Shown: positions 23,008-36,779 of the stretch, in pieces
Position numbering within the stretch: position 1 is the first letter of the stretch
How the letters are laid out: the number at the start of each line of letters is the position of its first letter
Assembly (NCBI GenBank): GCA_964291395.2
Contig: OZ219856.1
Location: 1,536,001 to 1,600,000, forward strand
Length of the DNA: 64,000 nucleotides
Source: Alphaproteobacteria bacterium
GTDB lineage: Bacteria; Pseudomonadota; Alphaproteobacteria; UBA2966
Direction of reading: 5' to 3'
The notes under the pieces: generated by a model
What the model was told of the DNA's origin: nothing
Database searches by the model: none
What the model saw: only the letters and a program-made list of their open reading frames with translations
Translations under genes and position numbers: made by a program

Positions 23008-24399
23008 TTAAATCAGACCGGGCGGTGGCCCAATTGGCACAATCGATTGTTCAAAAGCCGCGCCGATTCGAAGGGCAGACGCCTCGTCGTTCCTTCGGGT
23101 GATGATCTGCAGTCCACCCGGCAAATGTTCGGGTGTCAGTCCCATCGGCAGGGACAAGGCGCAGGTAGCCAAATAACTCACAGGCCGCGTAAAGCGCCCA
23201 GCTATGGCAGACCGGTCGATATCCGGCAAGGGAATGGGAGCCGTCGCCATGGTGGGTGTAAGTACCGCAGCGAAGCCACGCATGCTTTCCTCAAACGCAG
23301 AGAAATGGATTTGCCGCTGCAGGCGGGTGGCGATGTAGTCGCGAGCCGAGATGTCTCGTCCCGCCAGGACCTTGCGGCGAATTTCTTCGTCGACACGGGC
23401 GTCCGGATTCTCCATCAGGGTACCGTGATGGGCATAGACTTCCGCAGTAAAAATTAGACCGTTTGCTTCGGCCATGGTTTGATAGGGAACAGGCGGCTCG
23501 TAAGGAATGATTTCCGCACCCAACGAACGCAGGCGCTCCAACGCGACGTCGTAAAGCCCTAGAATTGCCTCTTCCACGCCCTCGCGATCCTGTTTCCGCA
23601 GCGCACCGAGACGGAGACCACGAATACTTTCTCCCGTCACCTCTGCCGAAATGCCGTGGTCACCCAAATGGTGTTCCAGATCTCTGGCGCTTACTCCTGC
23701 CATGACATCGAACATGAAAGATGTGTCGGCCGTAGAACGGGTCATCGGCCCTGGCGTATCTTGCGTGTGCGAGCAGGGAATAATACCGTCGGTGGGCAGA
23801 AAGTTTTCGGTCACTTTGAGTCCCACGCCGCCACACCAGGCGGAAGGCATGCGCACCGAACCACCGGTGTCCGTTCCAACAGCACAGGGCACAAGACCGG
23901 CCGCGACAGCAACGCCCGAGCCACTCGAGGAACCGCCGGGTGTGCGATGAATTTGCAAATCCCATGGGTTCCACGGAGTCCCCATGTGCTGGTTGGTGCC
24001 CCAACCGCCCATTGCGATTTCGGTCGTTTTGGTCTTACCAATCAGGATACCGCCCGCGGCAAGCAACCGCTGTGCGATTGTCGCCGTGGCCGGTGAAAGG
24101 CGTTGAGCCATCTCCGCCGAGCCGCCGGTGGTGATACGGCCCTCAACATCAATTAGGTCTTTGAGGGCAAAGGGAATGCCGTGGAATGGACCGACCTGAT
24201 GACCGCTACGGATCGCCTTGTCGGCAGCTTCCGCCGCAAGGCGTGCATCATCGGCGTAGACAGCCTGGAATGCACCAAGTTTGCTGTCGAGGGTCTCAAT
24301 CCTGCTCAATATGGCGTCGATGACTTCGCTCGGCGCCACGGCGCCATGTCGGTAGTCCTGCGCCAGGCCAATTGCACTCTGAAATGGGTCGGTGGACAT
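23008..24399 (-). CDS. Amidase-signature family amidase (lower GC than backbone)
   Basis: ALKD, PGGSSSGS and GTDTGGSVR (Lys-cisSer-Ser triad). Confidence 0.93.
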   Translation of the reverse strand: MSTDPFQSAIGLAQDYRHGAVAPSEVIDAILSRIETLDSKLGAFQAVYADDARLAAEAADKAIRSGHQVGPFHGIPFALKDLIDVEGRITTGGSAEMAQRLSPATATIAQRLLAAGGILIGKTKTTEIAMGGWGTNQHMGTPWNPWDLQIHRTPGGSSSGSGVAVAAGLVPCAVGTDTGGSVRMPSAWCGGVGLKVTENFLPTDGIIPCSHTQDTPGPMTRSTADTSFMFDVMAGVSARDLEHHLGDHGISAEVTGESIRGLRLGALRKQDREGVEEAILGLYDVALERLRSLGAEIIPYEPPVPYQTMAEANGLIFTAEVYAHHGTLMENPDARVDEEIRRKVLAGRDISARDYIATRLQRQIHFSAFEESMRGFAAVLTPTMATAPIPLPDIDRSAIAGRFTRPVSYLATCALSLPMGLTPEHLPGGLQIITRRNDEASALRIGAAFEQSIVPIGPPPGLI

Positions 24400-24509
24400 C
24401 TATTCCCGCCTTCTTGTTGATCGTTTGCGGCACTTCGGCATTTTCGGACTAACTGGATCGGACCAATAGAACCAACAATCGGGGTCTCTCAGGCCTCACT
24501 CCGTAGCGG

Positions 24510-24719
24510 CTAAGGCTCAATTGCAGACCGATCGTACCGGCCAGCAATGGAGTGGAAGGGGAAGCGACCCAGAACCTTGTCGCCAGCGGAAAGCTCCAGC
24601 ATCCAGTTCCCCGATTCGCTTCGGCACGGTCCAACCTTTTCGACACCTTGGAGGTGGATGGGATGAACCGCGGCGTTCCCCTGCACAAACACGGTGATCG
24701 CCCTCGACTCCTCACTCAT
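24510..24719 (-). CDS. Small hypothetical protein
   Basis: 69 aa ORF with plausible composition and GGAG-like upstream sequence. Confidence 0.4.
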   Translation of the reverse strand: MSEESRAITVFVQGNAAVHPIHLQGVEKVGPCRSESGNWMLELSAGDKVLGRFPFHSIAGRYDRSAIEP

Positions 24720-24986
24720 GTCCGTCTCCTATCTTCCGTTCGGGGCTCAAATCATGCCCCGCAGACGTACCCTCCGGGAACCGACCCCGGCTGAGAAGCG
24801 TTGAGAACCACGTTTCCCGTCTCGGTTCGGGCTGCGCCTCCAGGAGGATACAAGAACGGCAGCACCGCGACGGGCGTCCGGCCCCGCATGACCACACGGA
24901 GTTCGTGCACGTCACCGCCGATTGCAACTGAGGCCGATCGGGCCGCCGGGCGGGAGGCCGAGCGTCTCCCTCCCGTCCGGCGGTCA

Positions 24987-25077
24987 CTCAGATGTGGATG
25001 CGCTCGATCTCGTCGAGCGAGATCTCCTCGGGCAGTTTGTTGTAGAGCTGCGTCGTACGCGTCGAGGCGTGGCCCGC
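24987..25077 (-). pseudogene. C-terminal piece of a split tyrosine recombinase
   Basis: AGHASTRTTQLYNKLPEEISLDEIERIHI* carries the catalytic His and Tyr. Confidence 0.88.
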
Positions 25078-25109
25078 AAGCGGGGATCAATTCCGTCAGC
25101 CCTTTCGCT

Positions 25110-25243
25110 TACCCTCCACGAGGTCCATTAAACACCTATAAATCAATCACTTGACACAGGTGAACAGACGCTTCATCCTACCAACGCTTTCGCTATGCAT
25201 CCACCCTATCCGCGCCTGGGCGGGGGGATAAATGGGGGGATAA
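25110..25243. promoter_or_regulatory. Left att accessory sites: arm-type repeats and IHF consensus
   Basis: TGGAGGGTA (minus strand, 25110-25118); AATCAAtcacTTG 25141-25153 fits WATCAANNNNTTR; GGGGGGATAA twice at 12-bp period (25222, 25234). Confidence 0.65.
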
Positions 25244-25252
25244 TCCTCTGGC

Positions 25253-26479
25253 ATGAAAGGTGAGAACGAGAAGCAAAAGCGACAATACAAGCGTCCGTTG
25301 ACAGCCAAGTTCGTCCAGTCTGTACGGGCCGCAGGCAAGTACTACGACGGTCCTGGTAGAGGATTGTATCTGCGCGTCACGCCGACAGGCTACAAGTATT
25401 GGGAGACACGCCTCACCGTCAACGGCAGGCGGCGCACCCGTGGACTGGGACCTTATCCTGCGCTCTCGCTGAAGGAGGCTCGTGAGCAAGCGCAGGAGCT
25501 TCGAATCCAAGTACGTAAGGGTGAAGATCCATTCGTCGGCAAAGGCGCTCGGGAATTGACCTTTGCCGAGGCCGCGGCTTGCGCCATCGCGGACCGCCAA
25601 TCCCAATGGTCGAACCAGGACGAGATGAAGAGGAAGTGGCTTGGCGTATTCGAGCGCTATGTCTATCCAAAAATTGGGCACTGTCCCGTGTCAGCCATTA
25701 CACCGCATGACGTGGTAGATGTTCTTCGTGGCGTTGAAAAATCTTTTCGCCGGAGCTTGCCTGTCGTGCATCAGCGTATGGGTGTCGTGTTCAAGTGGAG
25801 CAGGACCAACGGTCACTACACCGACAATCCGGTCGCCTCCATTGTTCTCAAGGATGTGTTCGGCGCAGCCCCTTCCTCGCGTCATCATCGCGCCTTGCCT
25901 CATGCGCAAGTGGCCGGTGCAATGGCGCTCGTGCGCGAATCCGAGGCGTGGTTCGGCATCCGACTGCTGTTCCTCTTTGTCGTCCTGACCGCTGTGCGTA
26001 CGAACGAGGCACGCGGGACTTTGTGGTCGGAGATCGATTTCGAGGCTGCGCGGTGGACGATACCGGCCGCTCGCATGAAATCGCGCGAGGAACATAGTGT
26101 GCCCCTGTCGACGGCGGCTCTCTCCGTGCTGAGTGAGGCTCGCGACTCCGAGCCCCTTTGCGCCGCTCGTGAGCATAGCGGCCTTCCCGAGGTTGTATTC
26201 CCGTCCCCACAGGGCCAGGTGCTCTACCACAACGCGCTCTCTAAACGCGCGAAATTGCTGCGAATTGCCGCAGTGCCGCATGGCTTTCGTTCATCATTTC
26301 GGGACTGGTGCGGCGAGACGGGTGTGGAGTTCGTCGTTGCCGAGAAATGCCTCGCCCACGAGGTAGGCAACGACGTCGTAACCGCGTACTCGCGTTCTGA
26401 CCTCTACACCCGCCGTGTTCCGGTCATGGAAGACTGGGGTCGGTATGTAATTCCGGGTTCTGGCGGCGCGGCCCGCTGA
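25253..26479 (+). CDS. P4-like tyrosine integrase with arm-binding domain, apparently intact
   Basis: DG.GLYLRV..G.K.W and GLGPYP..SL.EAR arm domain; catalytic R (TAVR), K (RMK), HGFR, LAH and AY. Confidence 0.93.
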   Translation: MKGENEKQKRQYKRPLTAKFVQSVRAAGKYYDGPGRGLYLRVTPTGYKYWETRLTVNGRRRTRGLGPYPALSLKEAREQAQELRIQVRKGEDPFVGKGARELTFAEAAACAIADRQSQWSNQDEMKRKWLGVFERYVYPKIGHCPVSAITPHDVVDVLRGVEKSFRRSLPVVHQRMGVVFKWSRTNGHYTDNPVASIVLKDVFGAAPSSRHHRALPHAQVAGAMALVRESEAWFGIRLLFLFVVLTAVRTNEARGTLWSEIDFEAARWTIPAARMKSREEHSVPLSTAALSVLSEARDSEPLCAAREHSGLPEVVFPSPQGQVLYHNALSKRAKLLRIAAVPHGFRSSFRDWCGETGVEFVVAEKCLAHEVGNDVVTAYSRSDLYTRRVPVMEDWGRYVIPGSGGAAR

Positions 26480-26641
26480 GGTCGGCCGATTTTGGTCGGC
26501 ACCGCACTTCCATCGTTTTCGCAACACGATTTGGGAGGAGGTTGAAGCGAAATATCATGATGCCGTGCGAGCCAACCTTCGAAACTGACCGGACCCCCGC
26601 TGAGCCGGCGCTGGGACATCGACGCCCACTCAGGCGCTTGG

Positions 26642-26866
26642 TCAAAGCCTGCAGCGTCGTTGTTTACCCTCTGGTCGACGTCCCCGTCCGCTGCCGTCAG
26701 GTGCAGCGGCGTCAGGCCGGTATCGCTTTACCGACAGACCGAGGGCGTCGACGATCTCGCTTTTGACGAACGCGGCGGGATGGACGGGGTTCTTAATGTG
26801 GATGCCTTGCGCGTGCGAAACCGCTTCGACGAGGGACCGGTTCGGGTCCATGCCGAACGCGCTCAT
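26642..26866 (-). pseudogene. Chimeric antitoxin remnant (XRE-type N-terminus plus internally deleted HigA-like part)
   Basis: MSAFG...SLVEAVSHAQG followed by IKNPVHPAAFVKSEIVDALGLSV then KRYRP; no complete HTH. Confidence 0.6.
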
Positions 26867-26936
26867 TTCCTCCTCCTTTCCCCGTTCCGGGCACTGCCAC
26901 CGGCGAGCACGGAACGCCCCTTGACTCCCGCACCGA

Positions 26937-27077
26937 CTAAACCATAAACGCCCCAACGATCAGGGTCAGGGACAAGACCAGGTTCAAGCCCAGCATCCAC
27001 TTCAAGAGCGTGAGATCGTTCTCGATCTTCGCCAGTCGATTGTCGTACCCCGCGATTTCTTCCGTCGCCAATTCCAT
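26937..27077 (-). pseudogene. DUF1640/CCDC90-like coiled-coil plus TM C-terminal fragment
   Basis: EEIAGYDNRLAKIENDLTLLKWMLG motif. Confidence 0.6.
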
Positions 27078-27172
27078 GGCGCCTCGCCTATTCGGAACAG
27101 TCCGTCCGCATCCGCACCCGGACTTCCCCGGCGAGAGCCGAAGACATCGCCTCCCCATCCCCGATCATCCGC

Positions 27173-27373
27173 TCAACGGCCGCTGCCGCGGTCGCACCAG
27201 GAACGCCGGTCCGCCAACAAGGCCTCGGCACGGGCGATGTCGTCCCGTGCCTTGGCGATGAACTCGGCGTCGCCGCCGGCCTCCTCCAGACAGGCCTCCA
27301 GATACGCGGCCATTTCCTCCGGCGTGCGGAGGTGCCCGGCGACGTCGTACGGCGAGGTGACGGTTCTTGCCAT
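27173..27373 (-). pseudogene. Truncated addiction-module antidote protein (HI1420-like)
   Basis: PYDVAGHLRTPEEMAAYLEACLEE...FIAKA.DDIARA; the HTH half is missing. Confidence 0.8.
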
Positions 27374-27397
27374 GATCACACCGGCATTGCACCCGTC

Positions 27398-27637
27398 TCA
27401 CCGCTCCTCGTCCCGGTCCTCGCGCAGCATCTCGGCGGAATGGCGTCGCAACCGGGGCATGTCGGTGCGGAACTCCGCCAGCTCCTCGAGCGGCAACGGG
27501 GTCTTTGGCCGGGCGGCCGGAGACATGCGCGCAATGGGCCGGCCATGGCGGGTGATCGACACTTCCTCTCCGCCCTCCACCCTGTCGAGCAGTTCGCTCA
27601 AGCGCCCCTTCGCGTGGGCAACATCGACCGTCAACAT
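27398..27637 (-). CDS. Phd/YefM antitoxin, orphan
   Basis: AKGRLSELLDRVEGGEEVSITRHGRPIAR. Confidence 0.88.
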   Translation of the reverse strand: MLTVDVAHAKGRLSELLDRVEGGEEVSITRHGRPIARMSPAARPKTPLPLEELAEFRTDMPRLRRHSAEMLREDRDEER

Positions 27638-27703
27638 AACACCATCATCTCTCATTCCCGGCCACGCAGAGACCACGCGGGCTCGTCGCTCGCCCGGCCT
27701 CCG

Positions 27704-27940
27704 TCAAGCCTTTCGAGGAGGTTCCTCGTCCAGGGCGGACTCCAGGGACCCTTCGTCCGTGACGCCGGCATCCCCAGCTACGTGGCGAAGAATTCCCCTG
27801 GCCGCGCCAGCGGTCTTCGGCACGATGGTAATGCGCCCGTCGGCGACGAAGCTGCGGACCTCGTCGCCTGGTCCGATCCCGGCCTCCCTGCACTGATCGG
27901 CAGGGAGCGTGATCCGGCGCCTGGCGCTCACTCGCGGCAT
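27704..27940 (-). CDS. AbrB/MazE-type antitoxin, orphan
   Basis: MPRVSARRRITLPADQCREAGIGPGDEV. Confidence 0.85.
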   Translation of the reverse strand: MPRVSARRRITLPADQCREAGIGPGDEVRSFVADGRITIVPKTAGAARGILRHVAGDAGVTDEGSLESALDEEPPRKA

Positions 27941-28094
27941 GGGACCATTCCCCGGACAGGAGCAATAGCGAAAGGCAATGTCGAATTCTCCACCAGCGGC
28001 TCAGCGGCAAGGAGCCTGCAACACCGGCGGGACCGAAGGACAGCTCCTGGCGCTCTCCGGTCCGACGGCGTCGAGGGCGTGATGTTCTGGAGCA

Positions 28095-28361
28095 TCAGCC
28101 GGCCACCAGACTTCCGGTCTCCCGGAACAGGCGATCGTATTCGGCCAGCAGCGCCTCGTCCGCAGGTTCGTCGTGCTCCCACTTGCGCCACTCGACCAGA
28201 GCCCTCCACCACATCCGATCCACCGCTTTCGATCTCGGATCGGTCGCTATAAGGAACACCGGCATCGGACACGGCCACCAGGTCTTGGCTGGCACGCCGA
28301 GGGGTGCGAGCGCGATAGCTGCCGCTCCAGCCGCGCCCCGCATCGTGGATTCATATGTCAA
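28095..28361 (-). CDS. Small Trp-rich hypothetical protein
   Basis: TTG start overlaps the stop of 28358..28696. Confidence 0.4.
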   Translation of the reverse strand: MTYESTMRGAAGAAAIALAPLGVPAKTWWPCPMPVFLIATDPRSKAVDRMWWRALVEWRKWEHDEPADEALLAEYDRLFRETGSLVAG

Positions 28362-28696
28362 GGCGTGTTCTCCCCTTCTGCCACGTCATCGACTTCCCTG
28401 AGCACCGGAACATCGTCATCCCCGCCGGCGCCCGGCACCTCCTCCAGCACCGGCTTGGCCAGCGCCGCCAGGTACAGTTCCAGGTCCTCCCGCAGTTCCT
28501 CCAGAGTATTGCCCTGGGGAGCCCGGCCCTCCACGGACCAGGCGACGATCTCTTGGGCATCGCCGTCGATCTCATAATGGACCTCGTGCACGACGTAGAA
28601 GTACGGCTCGTCCCATCCGGACACGTGCCGGTGCCTGATGACCCGATGGTTCCACACGCTGCGTTTCTCATCGGTGTCGCTATCCGATGCCGCCAT
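28358..28696 (-). CDS. Hypothetical protein with WNHRV..HEVHY..GNTLEEL motif (phage-type, possibly HicB-like fold)
   Basis: GGAGG RBS; acidic 112 aa ORF. Confidence 0.7.
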   Translation of the reverse strand: MAASDSDTDEKRSVWNHRVIRHRHVSGWDEPYFYVVHEVHYEIDGDAQEIVAWSVEGRAPQGNTLEELREDLELYLAALAKPVLEEVPGAGGDDDVPVLREVDDVAEGENTP

Positions 28697-29761
28697 GTTC
28701 CGACCTCCCGTTCCAGTCCGCGCCTGCATCAGCCTCCCGTTCCAGCCTCTGGATGATGGCCTCCCGGATCCGGGTGCCGCGGTTCGCCGTGCGCTTCGGC
28801 GTCTCGGAGCGCACCGTCGAGCAGCGGCTTCCCCAAGGCAGGTTCACATGGGCTGACCTCGCCAGAGCTGGACGGATGGTTGCAATGGGGGTGAAAAAAT
28901 ATTTCGACTTCGCGATCCAGAGACCCGAGCTAATTCGGTCGCAGCCACTTAAATGACTGAACGCCTGACAAGAGCCCCGTAGCGCCCTGAACTCCCTTAC
29001 AAACATCCCATCTACCTCGACGATTCTCCTACGCGCGCGTCTCGAAGGCCCGAAGGCCGCCCCGGTGTTGCGGGCGCGTCAGGCGTTGTCGGCCTCTTTG
29101 AGCAGCGCCACGATCCCATCGGCCAACTCCCGGATCGGCGCGTTCAGCCCGTCTCCGTAGTCGTTCAAGACCACGTCGCCCACGATGGATCAAGAGCTTC
29201 GCCAAACCGCGCGGCACGCTCACCAAGCCAGGAATGGACAATTATAGCGGTAGCCACGCCGAATGGTACGAGGCCTTTCCCAGGTTGCGGCGTGGATCTC
29301 AGTCGCCAAGTGATGGAGACGCTTAACAAATACGATCCGGAAGGCACTTCGAAGGCGATGAAAGGCCTAAAACTGCAAACGCCTGAACAAGCTAGAGCTG
29401 GCTACGTCGTCATGGCAGCGTTCATGCTACGACTTCACGATGTGAATTCGAACTCGCATGCTGGTCGGTTCTGAAACAGCTGCAAGTGCATCACTGAGAC
29501 CGGGCACGGATCTGTGTGCGATCGTTGCGGACTTCCTTCGACACGAGCACAAAACTGCGTCACGCTGGACCGGAAGGACCGGCGAATTTAGGGCCGCCAC
29601 TTGAGCATGATTATATTATGTGACGGTGGGCAATGCCGGTCGGCGCGCTATACGGTCTGGTGATTTGACTTTCGGCGCGCCCAACCCTGACGGCAGGCCG
29701 GCAATAAGCAACGCTCCGGGAAACGGCGTTGCGGACGCAGGCGCCAAAGCGGCTTCGGGGT

Positions 29762-29824
29762 TGTCCTTTCATTTTGATTGATGATGACCCTAAATCTGTC
29801 CGGACCAAATAAATGGAAGGGACA
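29762..29824. repeat. 63-bp palindromic element, copy A (degenerate)
   Basis: TGTCC...GGGACA; 48/63 ungapped identity to 32765..32827. Confidence 0.75.
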
Positions 29825-29996
29825 AGATAGGTTCAATACGAGAGTTCCGGAAGTTACCATGCAGTATCAGCCATTGCCGAGGGTTTCCGAGTGATGCCGT
29901 ACGCTACTTGTAACTTCCATGCAACTTTGGTCGACGCACCCGTCTGCATGGGAGGGATTGGTGAACCACTCGCCGGGGTTGGACGAAACTGTCGGA

Positions 29997-30150
29997 AACA
30001 TGGCCGTCATCCGACACTTCGCCTTCAACCTCCTGCGCATCGTCGACGACAAGCGCTCCATCAAGCTGCGCCGAAAGCGTGCCGCCAGAAACAACCAATA
30101 CCTCGCCGAAATCCTCCAACAGTTACGCCGTTAACCCGGATTCACGGCCG
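29997..30150 (+). mobile_element. ISAs1-family transposase C-terminal remnant
   Basis: NMAVIRHFAFNLLR...SIKLRRKRAA.N..YL..IL motif. Confidence 0.8.
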
Positions 30151-30754
30151 TGACAAAGTCCGAGGTTTTTATAATCGCATGGGCAAAAGTCGGCCCATTG
30201 ACGCGATGAGCAGCGTCCATTTCATCCCAGCTAACGCCTGCCGTTGCATCGGTAATCAATGTTACGTTATAGCCAAGCTCCATACCGTAGCGAGCGGTTG
30301 ATTCGATGCAGGTGTTCACGCGCAAACCAACAACGACAATTTTCGATACCCCATGCTTTTTAAGCAGCATATCAAGATCCGTATTCGCAAAACCACTTTG
30401 CGCCCAATGCTCCTGCACAATAACGTCGCCGTCTTGCGGCTGAAATTCTGGGTGAAACTCACCACCCCATTCGCCATCAGCAAATAGTTTCAAATCTCGG
30501 CTGCGTTCTTGTGTTGGGGCGTAATTAACCCAGCCGTCATAACGTCCGGCGCGATATCGGCGATGCGGCACGAAAAATACTGTGATCCCGGCATTGCGAC
30601 ACAGGTCAACAATCACTTTCAGGTTCTCGAACAACTTGACCTCAGTAGCGACTTTCTCGATATGCGGATATAATATCCCGCCTTCCGCCAAAAAATCATT
30701 GTAAGGATCAACGAGCAGTAATGCTGTGTCCAATGGAGTGTGGCTGTTTGTCAT
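30131..30754 (-). CDS. Isochorismatase-family cysteine hydrolase (low GC)
   Basis: LLLVDPYNDF, SGFANTDLD and NTCIESTAR motifs. Confidence 0.92.
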   Translation of the reverse strand: MTNSHTPLDTALLLVDPYNDFLAEGGILYPHIEKVATEVKLFENLKVIVDLCRNAGITVFFVPHRRYRAGRYDGWVNYAPTQERSRDLKLFADGEWGGEFHPEFQPQDGDVIVQEHWAQSGFANTDLDMLLKKHGVSKIVVVGLRVNTCIESTARYGMELGYNVTLITDATAGVSWDEMDAAHRVNGPTFAHAIIKTSDFVTAVNPG

Positions 30755-31068
30755 ACCGTATCATCCTTCTCCTAGCCGACACCCAAGTGGCGTGCGGCTT
30801 GACGGTGAGATTTCCAGAACGAGCGATTTGATCAAGCGTCTTCTGCCTCGAGGCTCGTCTCTGGTCGGGGAAGTGCCCGGAACCGGGCAGATCGGGACAG
30901 AATTAAGCCGACATTCACCAGATGAACGTCGTTTCCGGCGATGAGGGTAGCCGTTCCGGCCATCGACGGCAATTTTCATGTTGATGGGCTGTAACCGTAA
31001 GGCTCCCGATCGGCGCGGAAGAACTGCAGGGACGGGCACACGCCTTTGGCTGACCCCCGCGGCGGCCT

Positions 31069-31270
31069 GGCTTCCTGGGCGATCCACCAACCGGCCAGAT
31101 CGGGTTGATCGCGCAATATGGCGGTGATCTTGCCGCGGCCTTTGAGATAGCAGAGACCGCAGTTGCCTTCGTAAGACCGCAGTGCCAGGTCAAAGGGCTG
31201 ACGCTGCCACCAGGCGAGCACATCGCGCTCTGAGCACGCCCTCTTTTGTTGCATGACGAGACAGAACCCG
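31069..31270 (-). pseudogene. Fragment of phage-type PAPS-reductase-like protein
   Basis: DVLAWWQRQPFDL..EGNCGLCYLK...WWIAQE. Confidence 0.6.
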
Positions 31271-31587
31271 ACTCCATTTTGACGCCAGAATATTTTTGGT
31301 CTCGCGCCTCAGATTGATCAGTCCAAATGCGCGGTTGTATACCCCCACCTGATTTAGCGATACTTGAGCATTACCCTACGAACGTGGAGGCTGAAATGAA
31401 GATTTCCAGTGTCGTCTTGGGTGCTGCTCTTGGAGCCCTCTTTGCAATTCCGATTGCGTCTGCACCATCGAGTGGGAGTAGCGACTGGTTGCACTTCTTC
31501 AGGTCGTGATCGTCTTTCCCACAATCATCTTCTGGAACTCGGTACGCCAGGGCGCCGCAAGTCAAAACCATCGGAGGAATTGGAAGC

Positions 31588-32466
31588 ATGATTCAGGACA
31601 CAGTTGGATTCATCGGTCTCGGGAATCTTGGCAAAGCCATTGCGGATAATATCGCCAAGGGTGGATTCGAAATGTGCGTCTACGACGTTGTCGGAGCCGA
31701 CGAACGGGCGCCACAGGGGGCAGTCGTTGGGGCCTCCGTGAGCGAAGTCGCGGAGCGGAGCGGTTTGATATTCATATGCCTTCCGACCGTCGAGTCCATC
31801 GAAACCGTGGTGGATGAGATTTGTTCGGCCAATATCGCAGACGGTACCGTGGTCGTGAACAACTCGACCGCGGGCCCGACGTGCGCGATCGCGGCCCATG
31901 GCCGACTCGGCAAAAAGGGCATCGCGTACGCGGACGCGACCATTTCGGCAACACCGCCCCGTGCACGGGCCGCGGAGGCAATCGTGATGTTCTCCGGCGA
32001 GCCTGACGTGCGGAAGCGCCTGACTCCCGTGTTCGAGTCGTTCAGCAAGCAGGTTTTCGATCTTGGCACCGTGGTCGGCAACGGTCAGCGCATGAAGCTC
32101 ATCAACAACTGCCTGGTTCATACGGCGTTGGTGGTTTCAAGTGAGGCTATGGTATGGGGCGAAAAGGGCGGGCTCGAGTTGAAGACGATGCTGAAAGTCT
32201 TGACCGAGACATCCGGTCGTAACGTCGTCACCGATCACTTCTTTCCGGACGATGTCCTGACGGAGAAATACGCATCGGGTGGGTCAATAGACATCATTCG
32301 GAAGGACATCGAACTATTCGTGGGCGAAGCCAAGGCCGCCGGTTGCCTGCACGCCGTTGCTGAAACCGCATACAACGTGATCAAGGATTGTCAGGAGCAG
32401 GTACCGGGGTTGGATCAAACTATGATGTACCCCTACACGAAAAGCGGTGGCAAAGTGTCGGCCTGA
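31588..32466 (+). CDS. NAD(P)-dependent beta-hydroxyacid dehydrogenase family protein
   Basis: GFIGLGNLG and MKLINN motifs. Confidence 0.9.
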   Translation: MIQDTVGFIGLGNLGKAIADNIAKGGFEMCVYDVVGADERAPQGAVVGASVSEVAERSGLIFICLPTVESIETVVDEICSANIADGTVVVNNSTAGPTCAIAAHGRLGKKGIAYADATISATPPRARAAEAIVMFSGEPDVRKRLTPVFESFSKQVFDLGTVVGNGQRMKLINNCLVHTALVVSSEAMVWGEKGGLELKTMLKVLTETSGRNVVTDHFFPDDVLTEKYASGGSIDIIRKDIELFVGEAKAAGCLHAVAETAYNVIKDCQEQVPGLDQTMMYPYTKSGGKVSA

Positions 32467-32764
32467 CGCGGGAAATACTCGAATGCTAAGCTCGTCTTGA
32501 GAGAACCGACACCTGACTCGTGCTGCTCTGAAGAAGCAGATTCAAATTTCACGCCATGTAGAGGTGTGACAATTCCGACAACTGCTGATCGCCATCCTTC
32601 TACAATCAGCGATAATGTGTGTTTTCCGATATGCCTTGGCGACGTCTAAGTTCCTCGCCCGACATCCCCTCTCATGAACAGGACCGAGCCGTTGTAAATT
32701 GTCGTTGAGAAACTTGTGCCTCACCGGGAAGCTCCTGGATTCGCAATATGCGCCATTGGACACC

Positions 32765-32827
32765 TGTCCCTTCTATTTAATCGGTCATGATCCTAAATCA
32801 GTCCAGATCGATTAAATAAAAGGGACA
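32765..32827. repeat. 63-bp palindromic element, copy B (22-bp stem, 19-nt loop)
   Basis: TGTCCCTTCTATTTAATCGGTC ... GATCGATTAAATAAAAGGGACA. Confidence 0.85.
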
Positions 32828-33311
32828 GGGACAGGTTTTCTTGTCACCCACCCGGAGATTACGCCATCCCCAAATTTCCACCACGTACGAGGCAGAGCAA
32901 ACCGAGGTATCTGAAGCTAAAGGAGTTGTCTCGAAGAATTTGCTCTGACAAAGCCCCGGCTATCAATGGATGACTTCGCCGGTCCAGCGGTCGCGGTTCG
33001 CCCAGAACGGGCATTCCGGGCAGACCGTTCCATCGTAGTCAGTGAACCACACCGTGAACGCACCGACCCTATGCGCGACATGTCTACCGAGGCGCGCCCT
33101 CCAGCGTCGCGGCACGTAGTCGGAGTTCTCGGTGGCTCATCGTGCGCGTGACATCGTACCCCTTGGTGCTGCTCGGAAAGACCAGAGGCAAGGTCGCTAC
33201 ACATTCCGTCGCCGCTTGACCAGTTGCTGCCAGGCGTGTCGACGGCGTTCAATCGTAGATCAAACTTTACGTCTCCGGCACCGGTTGAAGTATTTTCAAT
33301 TGGTGGTCTTT

Positions 33312-33433
33312 TGGAGGGAAGCGTGGAGGGAGAACTCTGTCAGCACGGCGCTGCTGCACAATAAATTGTAGCAAAAACAGTCTGTTATCTAGATATTGGG
33401 AGCTCGACGCTGGTCCATCCCCGTTCGGTCCGC
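33312..33433. promoter_or_regulatory. Right att region: arm-type repeats, IHF-like site, core half-site
   Basis: TGGAGGGA twice at 12-bp period (33312, 33324); AAACAGtctgTTA 33375-33387; ATCCCCG before CCGC. Confidence 0.6.
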
Positions 33434-33795
33434 GATCCGCGCCGCAACCTCCAGGTCGCCTCCGTTCCGCAGGTACTCCGTGATCCCCGTCCCCCGGAAG
33501 CTGTGCGCGCATATCTCCGCGGGCAGACCCGCACGCTGCGCACGGCGCTTGATGGTCGCGAACGCTCCATGCCGCGTGAGGCCCTCCTCGAGCAGCGCAT
33601 CGCGCGGACCGGGACCCGTGCGCCGGAACAAAGGCCCGCGGCGGTCGTGAGCGATACCTGACGCCTCGAGGTAGGCATCGACATACTCCTACATCGTATG
33701 GTGGGCGGGAACCACGTTGTATCGGCTCCCCTTCTCGTGAAGACGGAAGAACGAGCGCGGTCCCTGCGTGTAGTAGTCGCCGACCCGAAGCGAGG
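33430..33795 (-). pseudogene. Upstream piece of the split tyrosine recombinase (5' truncated, in-frame TAG at 33689-33691)
   Basis: LRVGDYY...RLHEKG...PAHH...CAHSFRGTGITEYLRNGGDLEVAARIA. Confidence 0.88.
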
Positions 33796-33879
33796 CCGCT
33801 TCGGGTCGGGCAACCATCAATCCGACAGACCATTCGGAAACCAAGCGAGTCCGGCTCAGTCCTCGATCAACACGGTCAC

Positions 33880-34647
33880 TAGAGCACATTTCGTTCAGAC
33901 GCGGTCATATCCTGCAGCAGCGAAGTAGTTTTGGCACTCGGCCGGGCTGAAGTTGTCTGTGGCTTGGCCGATGGCCTCCCAGAGCTCGTTGAGGGTGCGG
34001 GCGGCGCGTTGCTTGAGGGAGGCCTTGAGCTTGGAGAAGGCCATCTCGATCGGGTTGAAGTCGGGGCTGTATGGCGGCAGGAAGCGCAGTTCGGCTCCGG
34101 CGCCTTGGATGGCGTCGCGCACGGCGGCGCTGCGGTGGCAGGCAAGGTTGTCCATCACCACGATGTCGCCGGGCTTGAGCGAGGGCACCAGCACCTGTTC
34201 GACGTAGGCGAGGAAGGCGGCGCCGTGCATGGCGCCGTCGAGCACCATGGGCGCGGTCATGCCGCTCAACCTCAAGGCACCGACGAAGGTCGTGGTCCTC
34301 CAATGTCCATTAGGCACCGGCGCCCTGCACCCCTGTCCGCGCATGGCCCGGCCGCATCGTCGCGCCATCTTGGTGGACGCGCCGGTCTCATCGACGAAGA
34401 CGAGCGTGTCGGGCTCGAGATCGGGCTGTGTCTCGATCCAGGCCCGCCTGCGCCTGAGCACGTCAGCGCGTTGCTGCTCGCTGGCGGGTCATGCTGCCAT
34501 CGACAACCGCCCTCACTACCCGGCGACGCAGATCATTCGAAAGAGGTCGTATCATGCAGGCTGGCCTCCTTCACCAGCCCGCATCTTGAATCACATTTCC
34601 AAGAGATTGAAAATTCTAATGATTCTCTAAGGGCGAAAAATGCTCTA
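33880..34647 (-). mobile_element. Internally deleted IS630-family element with both ends
   Basis: Ends TAGAGCACATTTCG and CGAAAAATGCTCTA; N-terminus MIRPLSNDLRRRVV (ATG 34555) joined out of frame to the DDE domain (FVDETG, MDNL, PIE). Confidence 0.88.
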
Positions 34648-35170: not shown

Positions 35171-35509
35171 ATGGCGAAGCCCGCAAACAGAAGCTATTCC
35201 CGCTATGCCCGTGAAGCCGCAGAGCTTCTCGGGCTGATGATCCATAACGCGCGCATCGAACGCGACATCACGGTCGCCGATGTCGCCGAACGAGCCGGGA
35301 TTTCGCGCGGCCTTGTGCACCGCATCGAAAAAGGCGAAATGGGCTCCTCCATCGGTGCGGCCTTCGAGGTGGCCGCCATTATCGGGCTGCGCTTGTTCGA
35401 AGCCGAACCGACAACGCTGACGCGCCATCTGTCGATGGAACGAGACAAGCTCACCCTGCTACCGAAATCCGTCCGCACGGGAACGACGAAGGTGAAAGAT
35501 GACTTCTGA
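35171..35509 (+). CDS. XRE-family antitoxin (HipB-like)
   Basis: HTH VAERAGISRGLVHRIEKG; overlaps the hipA-like start. Confidence 0.88.
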   Translation: MAKPANRSYSRYAREAAELLGLMIHNARIERDITVADVAERAGISRGLVHRIEKGEMGSSIGAAFEVAAIIGLRLFEAEPTTLTRHLSMERDKLTLLPKSVRTGTTKVKDDF

Positions 35510-36779
35510 TCGCCCCGACACGAAAGCGCCGGAAGAAGCCTATGTCTGGGTATGGCTGCCCGGCGCGACTGCACCGGTCGTCGCCGGTCGCATCGCGCAT
35601 GACGGCGAGCGGCTGATCTTCAACTACGGTCAGAGCTATCTGGATCGGAATGACCGCATTCCGATCTACGAGCCGGAACTGCCGCTGCGCAGCGGAGCGA
35701 TTGCGCCCGAAGTCGGGCTGAGCATGGCCGGATGTCTGCGCGACGCCGCGCCCGATGCGTGGGGCCGTCGCGTCATTCTGAACCGGACCTTCGGACGCAA
35801 GGGCAATGATGTCGACACCGCTACACTCGACGAGCTGACCTATCTACTGGAGTCCGGCTCCGACCGCATCGGCGCTCTGGACTTCCAGCGCTCCCCTTCC
35901 GAGTACGTGCCGCGCGTCGTTCAAGCCGCGACGCTCGAAGAGCTGCTGAGCGCCGCCGAGAAAGTCGAGAATGGCGTGCCGTTGACGCTCGAGCTCGATC
36001 AGGCACTGTTCCACGGTACGTCGCTCGGCGGCGCGCGCCCGAAGGCGACGATCCAGGACGGCGACACAAAGATGATCGCCAAGTTCTCGTCTTCGACCGA
36101 CACCTACAACGTGGTGAAGGCGGAATATGTCGCCATGCGCCTTGCTGCCAAGGCGGGGCTTGACGTCGCCCCCGTGCGTCTTGAGCACGTCGCCGGCAAG
36201 GACGTGCTTCTGGTCGAGCGTTTCGACCGCGCAAAGACGAAAGACGACTGGACGCGCAAGGCGATGGTCTCGGCGCTGACGCTGTTCGGTCTCGATGAAA
36301 TGATGGCGCGTTACGCCAGCTATGAAGTCCTCGCGGAAATCATTCGGCACCGCTTCACCTCGCCGAAGGCGACGTTGCACGAGCTGTACGGACGGCTCGT
36401 GTTCAATATCCTGTGCGGCAACACCGACGATCACGCCCGCAACCATGCGAGCTTCTGGGACGGCGAACACCTGACCCTGACGCCTGCCTATGACATCTGT
36501 CCGCAAAGCCGTTCCGGCAATGTGGCCAGCCAGGCGATGCTGATCGTCGGAGACAATCGGACGAGCACACTTGCGATCTGCCTCGAGGCCGCGCCCAGTT
36601 TCCAGCTCAGCGAGAAAGCCGCGAAGGACATCGTCGCCCGGCAGATCGGTACTGTCCGGGACGAATGGGACGACATCTGCCAGGAAGCCGTATTGACCGA
36701 AGTCGAGCGTAACCTGTTCGGCGAACGCATCTTTCTGAATGACTTCATCTTCGAAGGCACGCCGGACGGCCTGCGGTGA
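35499..36779 (+). CDS. hipA: HipA-family kinase toxin
   Basis: SLGGARPKA, NTDDHARNH and LTPAYD motifs. Confidence 0.92.
   Translation: MTSDRPDTKAPEEAYVWVWLPGATAPVVAGRIAHDGERLIFNYGQSYLDRNDRIPIYEPELPLRSGAIAPEVGLSMAGCLRDAAPDAWGRRVILNRTFGRKGNDVDTATLDELTYLLESGSDRIGALDFQRSPSEYVPRVVQAATLEELLSAAEKVENGVPLTLELDQALFHGTSLGGARPKATIQDGDTKMIAKFSSSTDTYNVVKAEYVAMRLAAKAGLDVAPVRLEHVAGKDVLLVERFDRAKTKDDWTRKAMVSALTLFGLDEMMARYASYEVLAEIIRHRFTSPKATLHELYGRLVFNILCGNTDDHARNHASFWDGEHLTLTPAYDICPQSRSGNVASQAMLIVGDNRTSTLAICLEAAPSFQLSEKAAKDIVARQIGTVRDEWDDICQEAVLTEVERNLFGERIFLNDFIFEGTPDGLR

Follow-up and report, generated by a model that had tools for sequence, protein, structure and literature searches.

In a 64,000-nucleotide stretch of an Alphaproteobacteria genome (lineage UBA2966; contig OZ219856.1, positions 1,536,001 to 1,600,000 of the forward strand), hereafter the window, an integrative islet of 8356 bp lies inside the 3' part of a gene for an Xer-like tyrosine recombinase. 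The islet carries int, a P4/CP4-like integrase gene, near its left end. As the initial annotation of this DNA had proposed, an attP can be rebuilt from its two ends, a composite site in the style of lambda and P4 with an inverted-repeat core, repeats on both arms and sites for integration host factor (IHF). The features of the locus, in window coordinates, are as follows.

25078–33433: integrative islet, 8356 bp, recognised from its flanks, which are one interrupted gene, and from empty-site contigs
24988–25077, minus strand: 3' fragment of the target gene (Xer-like tyrosine recombinase), its last 29 codons plus the stop (24988–24990), matching residues 298–327 of homolog P0003 at 97%
25074–25077: left CCGC copy, 4 bp common to element and target, the right part of the attL overlap GGCCCGC (25071–25077)
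25078–25087, plus strand: core-type half-site C' (AAGCGGGGAT), with which the islet begins; 7-bp perfect inverted repeat to 33417–33423
25109–25118, minus strand: inverted arm-type site of the P' arm (TGGAGGGTAA on the minus strand), within a 23-nt repeat unit (25097–25119)
25141–25153, plus strand: perfect IHF consensus (AATCAATCACTTG, a perfect WATCAANNNNTTR), whose TTG opens a TTGACA hexamer; an architectural site, an int-promoter site, or both
25182–25204, plus strand: degenerate second copy (74%) of the 23-nt unit at a spacing of 85, possibly a weak arm or accessory site
25222–25231 and 25234–25243, plus strand: two direct arm-type sites GGGGGGATAA of the P' arm, 100% identical, at a 12-bp period
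25253–26479, plus strand: int, 408 aa, a P4/CP4-like heterobivalent tyrosine integrase, apparently intact (Pfam PF13356, PF22022, PF00589)
33312–33319 and 33324–33331, plus strand: two direct arm-type sites TGGAGGGA of the P arm, at a 12-bp period
33386–33398, plus strand: IHF-like site TATCTAGATATTG with one mismatch, 18 bp before the core
33417–33426, plus strand: core-type half-site C (ATCCCCGTTC), 8/10 identical to the reverse complement of C', with no bulge
33427–33433: proposed 7-bp overlap O, GGTCCGC, placed by inverted-repeat symmetry; with its final CCGC, the tetranucleotide's right copy, the islet ends
33434–33799, minus strand: 5'-ward fragment of the target gene, residues 177–299 of the 327-aa family, 91% identical to P0003

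The islet is real, precisely bounded and ordinary in kind. Both flanks are adjoining pieces of a single gene: on the minus strand the left flank (24991–25077) encodes AGHASTRTTQLYNKLPEEISLDEIERIHI, followed by a stop, and the right flank (33434–33799) encodes ...CAHSFRGTGITEYLRNGGDLEVAARI. Excising the insert with one CCGC retained brings the target gene back into frame as ...LEVAARI/AGHASTRTT..., the same as in P0002 and P0003, two intact 327-aa homologs that cross the junction uninterrupted as LEVAARIAGHASTRTT and read ...LEVAARIAGHASTRTTQLYNKLPEEI(A/S)LDEIERIHI through the junction region. The interval 25074–33433 of the initial annotation spans both CCGC copies; its start, 25074, is the position of the left copy, and the first base of the islet is 25078.

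A protein search with the right-flank fragment returned 348 relatives at E ≤ 1e-8 (from 775 candidates), many of them 70–94% identical, and its best two matches, P0002 and P0003, are tyrosine recombinases with 94% and 93% identity. Plasmid-borne homologs of the target recombinase reach approximately 54% identity, and the fragment was not found in the 22 other genomes of the order. The N-terminal half of the target gene is gone (residues 1–176), and the remaining fragment has an in-frame TAG at 33689–33691, where the homologs have Gln. The target gene is thus a pseudogene, and became one either before the insertion or since.

Public data were compared as assembled contigs (Logan) of four runs; such contigs drop rare forms, and stretches without cover in runs X13 and X17 are no evidence of absence. 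Empty-site contigs, one each in runs X1 and X2 and coming from two studies, join 25073 to 33430 and skip 8356 bp. The joint can slide by 3 letters in X1 and 4 in X2, and its shorter side is 45 and 68 letters long, respectively. The inserted form was found in both runs, with X2 contigs spanning both junctions and an X1 contig spanning the left one. A contig in X13 tracks the left flank up to exactly 25077 and continues with 56 letters that match nothing in the window.

The end motifs that the initial annotation had listed (AAGCGGGGAT at the left end; ATCCCCGTT at 33417–33425 and CGGTCCGC at 33426–33433 at the right end; the arm repeats, the inverted site and the IHF consensus) are all present in the sequence, but two of its statements about the core changed on analysis. 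It had read the joined ends as an inverted repeat with a bulged base around an 8-nt spacer, which is the least parsimonious arrangement. Perfect 7-bp arms, ATCCCCG (33417–33423) and CGGGGAT (25081–25087), have 13 nt between them, and their symmetry centre gives a 10-7-10 layout with no bulge, in which a 7-bp overlap, ending on its right exactly at the observed junction, separates two 10-bp half-sites. It had also allowed the element only 4 bp of homology with its target. That figure is the contiguous identity alone; the overlap GGTCCGC matches the target's GGCCCGC at 6/7 positions, with T against C at overlap position 3. A junction-straddling perfect inverted repeat of at least 7 bp arose in 2462 of 200,000 random joins (1.2%), while the 10-mer AAGCGGGGAT is unremarkable by itself (4 matches at one mismatch against 5.96 expected). 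The target's C is retained in attL and the element's T in attR. These bases fit an exchange resolved inside or to the right of CCGC and do not fix the cleavage positions, which we infer to flank the overlap.

The direct GG(A/G)GGGA repeats at a 12-bp period on both ends, together with the inverted copy (motif TACCCTCCA at 25110–25118), are present as first described. Counting both strands, the 4.16-Mb genome contains GGRGGGA-N5-GGRGGGA exactly two times; each islet end has one of these tandems, both on the same strand, and tandems of GGRGGGA at the other spacings from 8 to 18 have zero matches genome-wide. The single motif is under-represented in the window (13 against 28 expected), and exact 8-mers repeated at a period of 12 occur at 0.128 per kb across the genome. 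The arm repeats are not due to chance. Both copies of the 23-nt unit (25097–25119 and 25182–25204) also hold GCTTTCGCT, beside the inverted arm site or its degenerate copy; the unit might extend the arm site or be bound by an accessory protein.

The perfect IHF consensus at 25141–25153 was confirmed. A weaker site had been placed at 33375–33387 in the right arm; a site is there, with two mismatches, but the one-mismatch site at 33386–33398 is the better candidate. One-mismatch matches occur at 0.18 per kb genome-wide, so that approximately 0.04 would be expected in the right arm. The window holds two matches to the IHF consensus against 0.32 expected (2 of 100 shuffles reach two), and the genome 43. 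The host possesses both IHF genes above their NCBIfam cut-offs (ihfA, 133.4 bits against 120.25; ihfB, 143.1 against 119.95).

Ahead of int, the perfect IHF consensus ends 100 nt before the start codon and the pair of direct arm repeats 10 nt before it. P4 and PAI I-536 each have an IHF site within the promoter of int; the one in PAI I-536 was shown to regulate the gene, chiefly by dampening its expression, and in P4 the integrase represses the promoter of its own gene (PMC7286903, in excerpt). By analogy, the left-arm sites likely have a dual role, architectural and regulatory. Three relatives of the integrase with 42–46% identity (L018, L021 and L038) have, by eye, short direct repeats of other sequences between the element end and int.

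The int gene starts 175 bp from the left islet end. The N-terminal arm-binding domain of its product (Arm-DNA-bind_3, PF13356, residues 16–94) was found at E 1.2e-18 and 67.5 bits against a cut-off of 27, followed by Phage_int_M (PF22022, 56.5 bits) and Phage_integrase (PF00589, 60.5 bits). The catalytic set R-K-H-R-H-Y is complete, and R249, K276, H343, R346, H369 and Y379 are invariant in a five-sequence alignment of Int with four relatives. The N-terminal domain also matches the PDB entries 3ju0 and 3jtz ('CP4-like integrase') at E 9e-9 and 1e-7. The three domains, the catalytic set and these structure matches bear out the initial classification as a P4-like integrase. Int scored 142.7 bits against NCBIfam NF007246 (PRK09692), below that model's cut-off of 434, with residues 14–401 aligned. 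Judged by sequence, it is a distant family member related to PRK09692 along its full length, and it is approximately 31–33% identical to phage-borne integrases. ARAGORN detected neither tRNA nor tmRNA genes in the window; members of the P4/CP4-like family usually integrate at the 3' ends of such genes, a habit that does not define the family.

Relatives of the integrase were collected from 56 genome-contig loci, 80 of 162 metagenome-contig loci and 12 other genomes of the family. The closest had 46% identity among the genome contigs, 40% among those 80 metagenome loci and 36% in the family genomes, two of which carried a relative. The tabulation of ends next to integrase homologs that the initial annotation had suggested was carried out, and it stopped short at a single full copy in the islet's own genome (plus one 38-residue match at chance level) and at relatives too distant, at 46% or less, for their ends to be compared. 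Beyond the window's own copies, AAGCGGGGAT occurs in the fetched loci only in L022 and L066, approximately 8.5 kb and 2.7 kb downstream of int, as chance would give. A search of the own genome with the computed attP (blastn-short and a fuzzy search) for a primary attB found a best exact match of 15 bp (E 0.74) and no 27-mer with five or fewer mismatches. Two exact patterns of the islet ends had no match in viral contigs, and a search of the 12 other family genomes for the islet or the target locus gave only paralog-level matches (~70%) to the dehydrogenase and amidase genes. No second insertion site was found in any of the collections searched (own genome, family genomes, and genome, metagenome and viral contigs). 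The copies in X1 and X2 sit at the same site and differ from the window by approximately 0.1–0.3% over most of the islet, and on that similarity their insertions look inherited rather than independent. Among 11 relatives checked, the integrases of L018, L020 and L025 follow a tRNA gene at a distance of approximately 150–250 bp, in the same arrangement.

We propose, with a probability of about 80%, that the islet was inserted by its own P4/CP4-like integrase through conservative site-specific recombination into the Xer-like recombinase gene, at the codons for ...ARI/AGH.... The attP core would consist of C (33417–33426), the overlap GGTCCGC (33427–33433) and C' (25078–25087). To this the P arm would add the two direct TGGAGGGA sites and the one-mismatch IHF-like site, and the P' arm the inverted arm site, the perfect IHF site and the two direct GGGGGGATAA sites. 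The N-terminal domain of Int would bind the arm sites, and its central and catalytic domains C and C'; IHF would bend the arms into an intasome, and strand exchange would take place across the 7-bp overlap, in which element and target have a single mismatch (T against C). Regulation of int is a probable further role of the arm and IHF sites that precede it, in line with reports on P4 and the E. coli 536 island. The data show the boundaries, the empty site, the domains of Int and the uniqueness of the repeats in the genome; which protein binds which att site, where the cuts fall and whether the islet is still active we infer.

The architecture is textbook; the single unusual point, which comes from one event, is how poorly the target half-sites fit. 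That poor fit points, most likely, to a low-affinity or secondary-type integration site and not to a new mechanism. Secondary-type integrations are documented for lambda, SXT and SGI1 (reviewed in PMC2297512, in excerpt). With attL, attR, attP and attB all definable to the base, the locus offers a ready substrate on which to test a distant P4-like integrase of an uncultured host.

Several observations weigh against this explanation. In the target, no more than 3/10 and 4/10 half-site positions agree with C and C', and 7578 genome positions that have at least 6/7 in the overlap fit the 27-bp core as closely as this site or more closely. Because so many positions fit as well, the site was not picked by core similarity alone, and sequence alone leaves the use of this target unexplained. 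The GG of the overlap could match the target by chance. With no relative close enough for its ends to be compared, no site is checkable by conservation. The empty-site contigs are uninterrupted sequence and no demonstration of excision; they could derive from an intact copy of the widespread recombinase gene in another strain or organism, and their joints were flagged 'between: not known' in the contig comparison. No circular junction occurs among the assembled contigs of the four runs, which drop rare forms. No excisionase or directionality factor (Xis, Vis, AlpA) was recognised in 77 open reading frames (ORFs) searched against Pfam (E ≤ 0.05) or 60 against PHROGs (E ≤ 0.001), searches that small or novel factors would escape. 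A promoter and terminator scan of 24850–25350 returned 0 sites, with no full sigma-70 match upstream of int.

The initial annotation had suggested a relaxed, transposon-like choice of target, in which, as with the heterology tolerance of IntDOT and Tn916, approximately 4 bp of identity (CCGC) within the 8-nt spacer would suffice. We consider this unlikely. The contiguous identity between element and target is indeed just 4 bp, the half-sites fit as poorly as described (3/10 and 4/10, with 7578 positions fitting equally or better), the genome has no long attP-like match (best 15 bp, E 0.74), the window has no tRNA gene, and IntDOT works with 1–2 bp of overlap identity (PMC2817482, in excerpt). 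However, the islet is present in a single genome copy, it occupies the same site in both runs that carry it (both junctions in X2, the left one in X1), and the collections searched yielded no second site. By symmetry its overlap matches at 6/7, within the range of site-specific systems such as SGI1 (PMC2297512, in excerpt), and 3 of the 11 relatives checked follow closely on a tRNA gene, a position that site-specific P4-type elements also take. With one insertion, one copy, the same site in X1 and X2 and no close relative, relaxed targeting is unproven, and a P4/CP4-like member that integrates with almost no recognition of target half-sites and as little as 4–6 bp of overlap identity seems doubtful to us. 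If true, it would bring IntDOT-like tolerance into a family regarded as strictly site-specific and for the most part directed to tRNA genes, and the islet could land in many genes.

The recombinase gene might instead be the islet's natural and specific target, with the islet homing into the conserved ARIAGH-coding stretch of a widespread recombinase family of mobile elements and so disabling a competitor. The insertion does hit the catalytic part, the most conserved one, of a family with 348 matches at E ≤ 1e-8, the family has plasmid-borne members (~54% identity), and the same insertion is present in two further public runs from two studies. Those shared insertions, however, are within approximately 0.1–0.3% of the window over most of the islet and apparently inherited, and 0 of 138 loci around integrase relatives (L018–L155) have the target recombinase family beside the integrase; the only recombinase matches there are two distant ones (27–28% identity) in L046, 4–5 kb from the integrase. 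Other fragments of the family in the genome end elsewhere, and one, the C3 fragment, starts 2–3 codons away with no element end beside it. This makes homing a long shot. We give least credence, verging on none, to an islet not made by its integrase at all, in which the insert would be a DDE-type transposon bounded by terminal inverted repeats and a CCGC target duplication of 4 bp, or would stem from illegitimate recombination. A 4-bp direct repeat does surround it, inverted repeats lie near both ends, and a DDE_3 transposase gene is found approximately 460 bp to the right. But no transposase lies within the islet, and if CCGC were the duplication, the inverted repeats would be subterminal, offset by 3 nt on the left and 6 nt on the right. 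Element-specific arm repeats and IHF-type sites are, moreover, placed as in an integrase attP, and an intact integrase gene begins 175 bp from the left end.

Between int and the P arm the islet carries the following cargo.

26480–33311: cargo region, partly decayed, with ORFs and gene fragments
27176–27397, minus strand: antitoxin-like ORF, HigA-like
27401–27703, minus strand: antitoxin-like ORF, Phd/YefM
27707–28000, minus strand: antitoxin-like ORF, MazE/AbrB
30131–30754, minus strand: isochorismatase-family gene
30979–31308, minus strand: PAPS-reductase-like fragment
31588–32466, plus strand: 3-hydroxyisobutyrate-dehydrogenase-like gene

We found no transposase inside 25078–33433. Since int and both att sites read as intact in this genome, mobility of the islet appears possible. 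The islet contig of X1 (25006–33044) jumps to 33624 through nine other letters, and the P arm, the attR core and approximately 190 bp of the target gene are missing from it; this variant without 33045–33623 could no longer excise. The X1 form further deviates by 12 extra bases inserted after 28336 and by clustered substitutions at 28317–28369, where there is no recognised gene. In X17, the isochorismatase and dehydrogenase segment (29825–32764) lies on a 3232-bp contig with nine differences and with unlike DNA at both ends, and no coverage of int was found. Possibly the cargo module also occurs outside the islet, which would then perhaps be a mosaic. In X2, the contigs of the outer flanks (24300–24861 and 33469–33799) differ from the window by 3% and 6%, against approximately 0.3% or less for most of the islet contigs listed and 2.5% for one 396-base piece. 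This could mean that the outer contigs are paralogous, or else that the islet and its immediate flanks were shared more recently than their surroundings.

To the right of the target pseudogene, the region is a mosaic of mobile and toxin-antitoxin genes. One feature is next to the truncated target gene:

33895–34461, minus strand: DDE_3 transposase ORF, outside the islet (Pfam PF13358, E 7e-33)

Along with it lies a full-length HipA-like kinase gene (35499–36779; HipA_C and Couple_hipA). The 8-mer ATCCCCGT of half-site C recurs at 33483–33490, 66 bp to the right and within the target gene, probably by chance. Elsewhere in the genome there is a second remnant of the target recombinase family (L011, G000:C1:2148149-2148326; residues 139–182, 91% identical to P0003), which directly abuts a 48-bp stretch 100% identical to the 3' end of the gene at 24987–25034 of the window. 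Judged from this arrangement, the remnant looks like a product of internal deletion or recombination related to the window copy, which begins at residue 177.

The islet most resembles known systems in how its integrase and sites are laid out. Like P4 and PAI I-536 of E. coli 536, it has an integrase of the three-domain build PF13356, PF22022 and PF00589, whose gene lies near one end and reads inward, with repeated arm sites and an IHF site just upstream. P4 shares approximately 20 bp with its tRNA target, whereas the islet has a short identity with its target and is not next to a tRNA gene. Its Int is only approximately 31–33% identical to the phage-borne members, and no excisionase of the Vis/AlpA type was recognised in the islet in the ORF searches against Pfam and PHROGs. 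Lambda attP likewise has inverted core half-sites around a 7-bp overlap, arm-type sites of mixed orientation on both arms, IHF-type sites between arm and core, and a heterobivalent integrase. The islet integrase belongs to another subfamily, its arm motif GGRGGGA differs from that of lambda, no Xis or Fis sites were identified in the islet, and the one mismatch between its overlap and the target is of a kind that lambda tolerates badly (PMC2817482, in excerpt).

SGI1 offers a parallel for the imperfect match. In its attP, the inverted repeats that enclose a proposed 7-bp overlap are imperfect, attB sites remain in use despite single substitutions in the overlap, and the island inserts at the 3' end of a protein-coding gene or else at secondary sites (PMC2297512, in excerpt). 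The islet shares with it the imperfect inverted repeats, the proposed 7-bp overlap, in which a single substitution would fall, and an insertion in the 3' part of a protein-coding gene. The two differ in that SGI1 and its primary target have an 18-bp att sequence in common, while the islet shares GG-CCGC with its target and has no known primary site. IntDOT of CTnDOT and the Tn916 enzyme are also tyrosine recombinases with an arm-binding domain, and their products can carry heterology in the overlap (PMC2817482, in excerpt). Those elements, however, are found at many sites with variable coupling sequences, in contrast to the one site and one mismatch of the islet, whose Int was grouped with P4/CP4-like integrases by Pfam and PDB matches. 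The islet belongs, as a distant member, to a familiar class of mobile elements.

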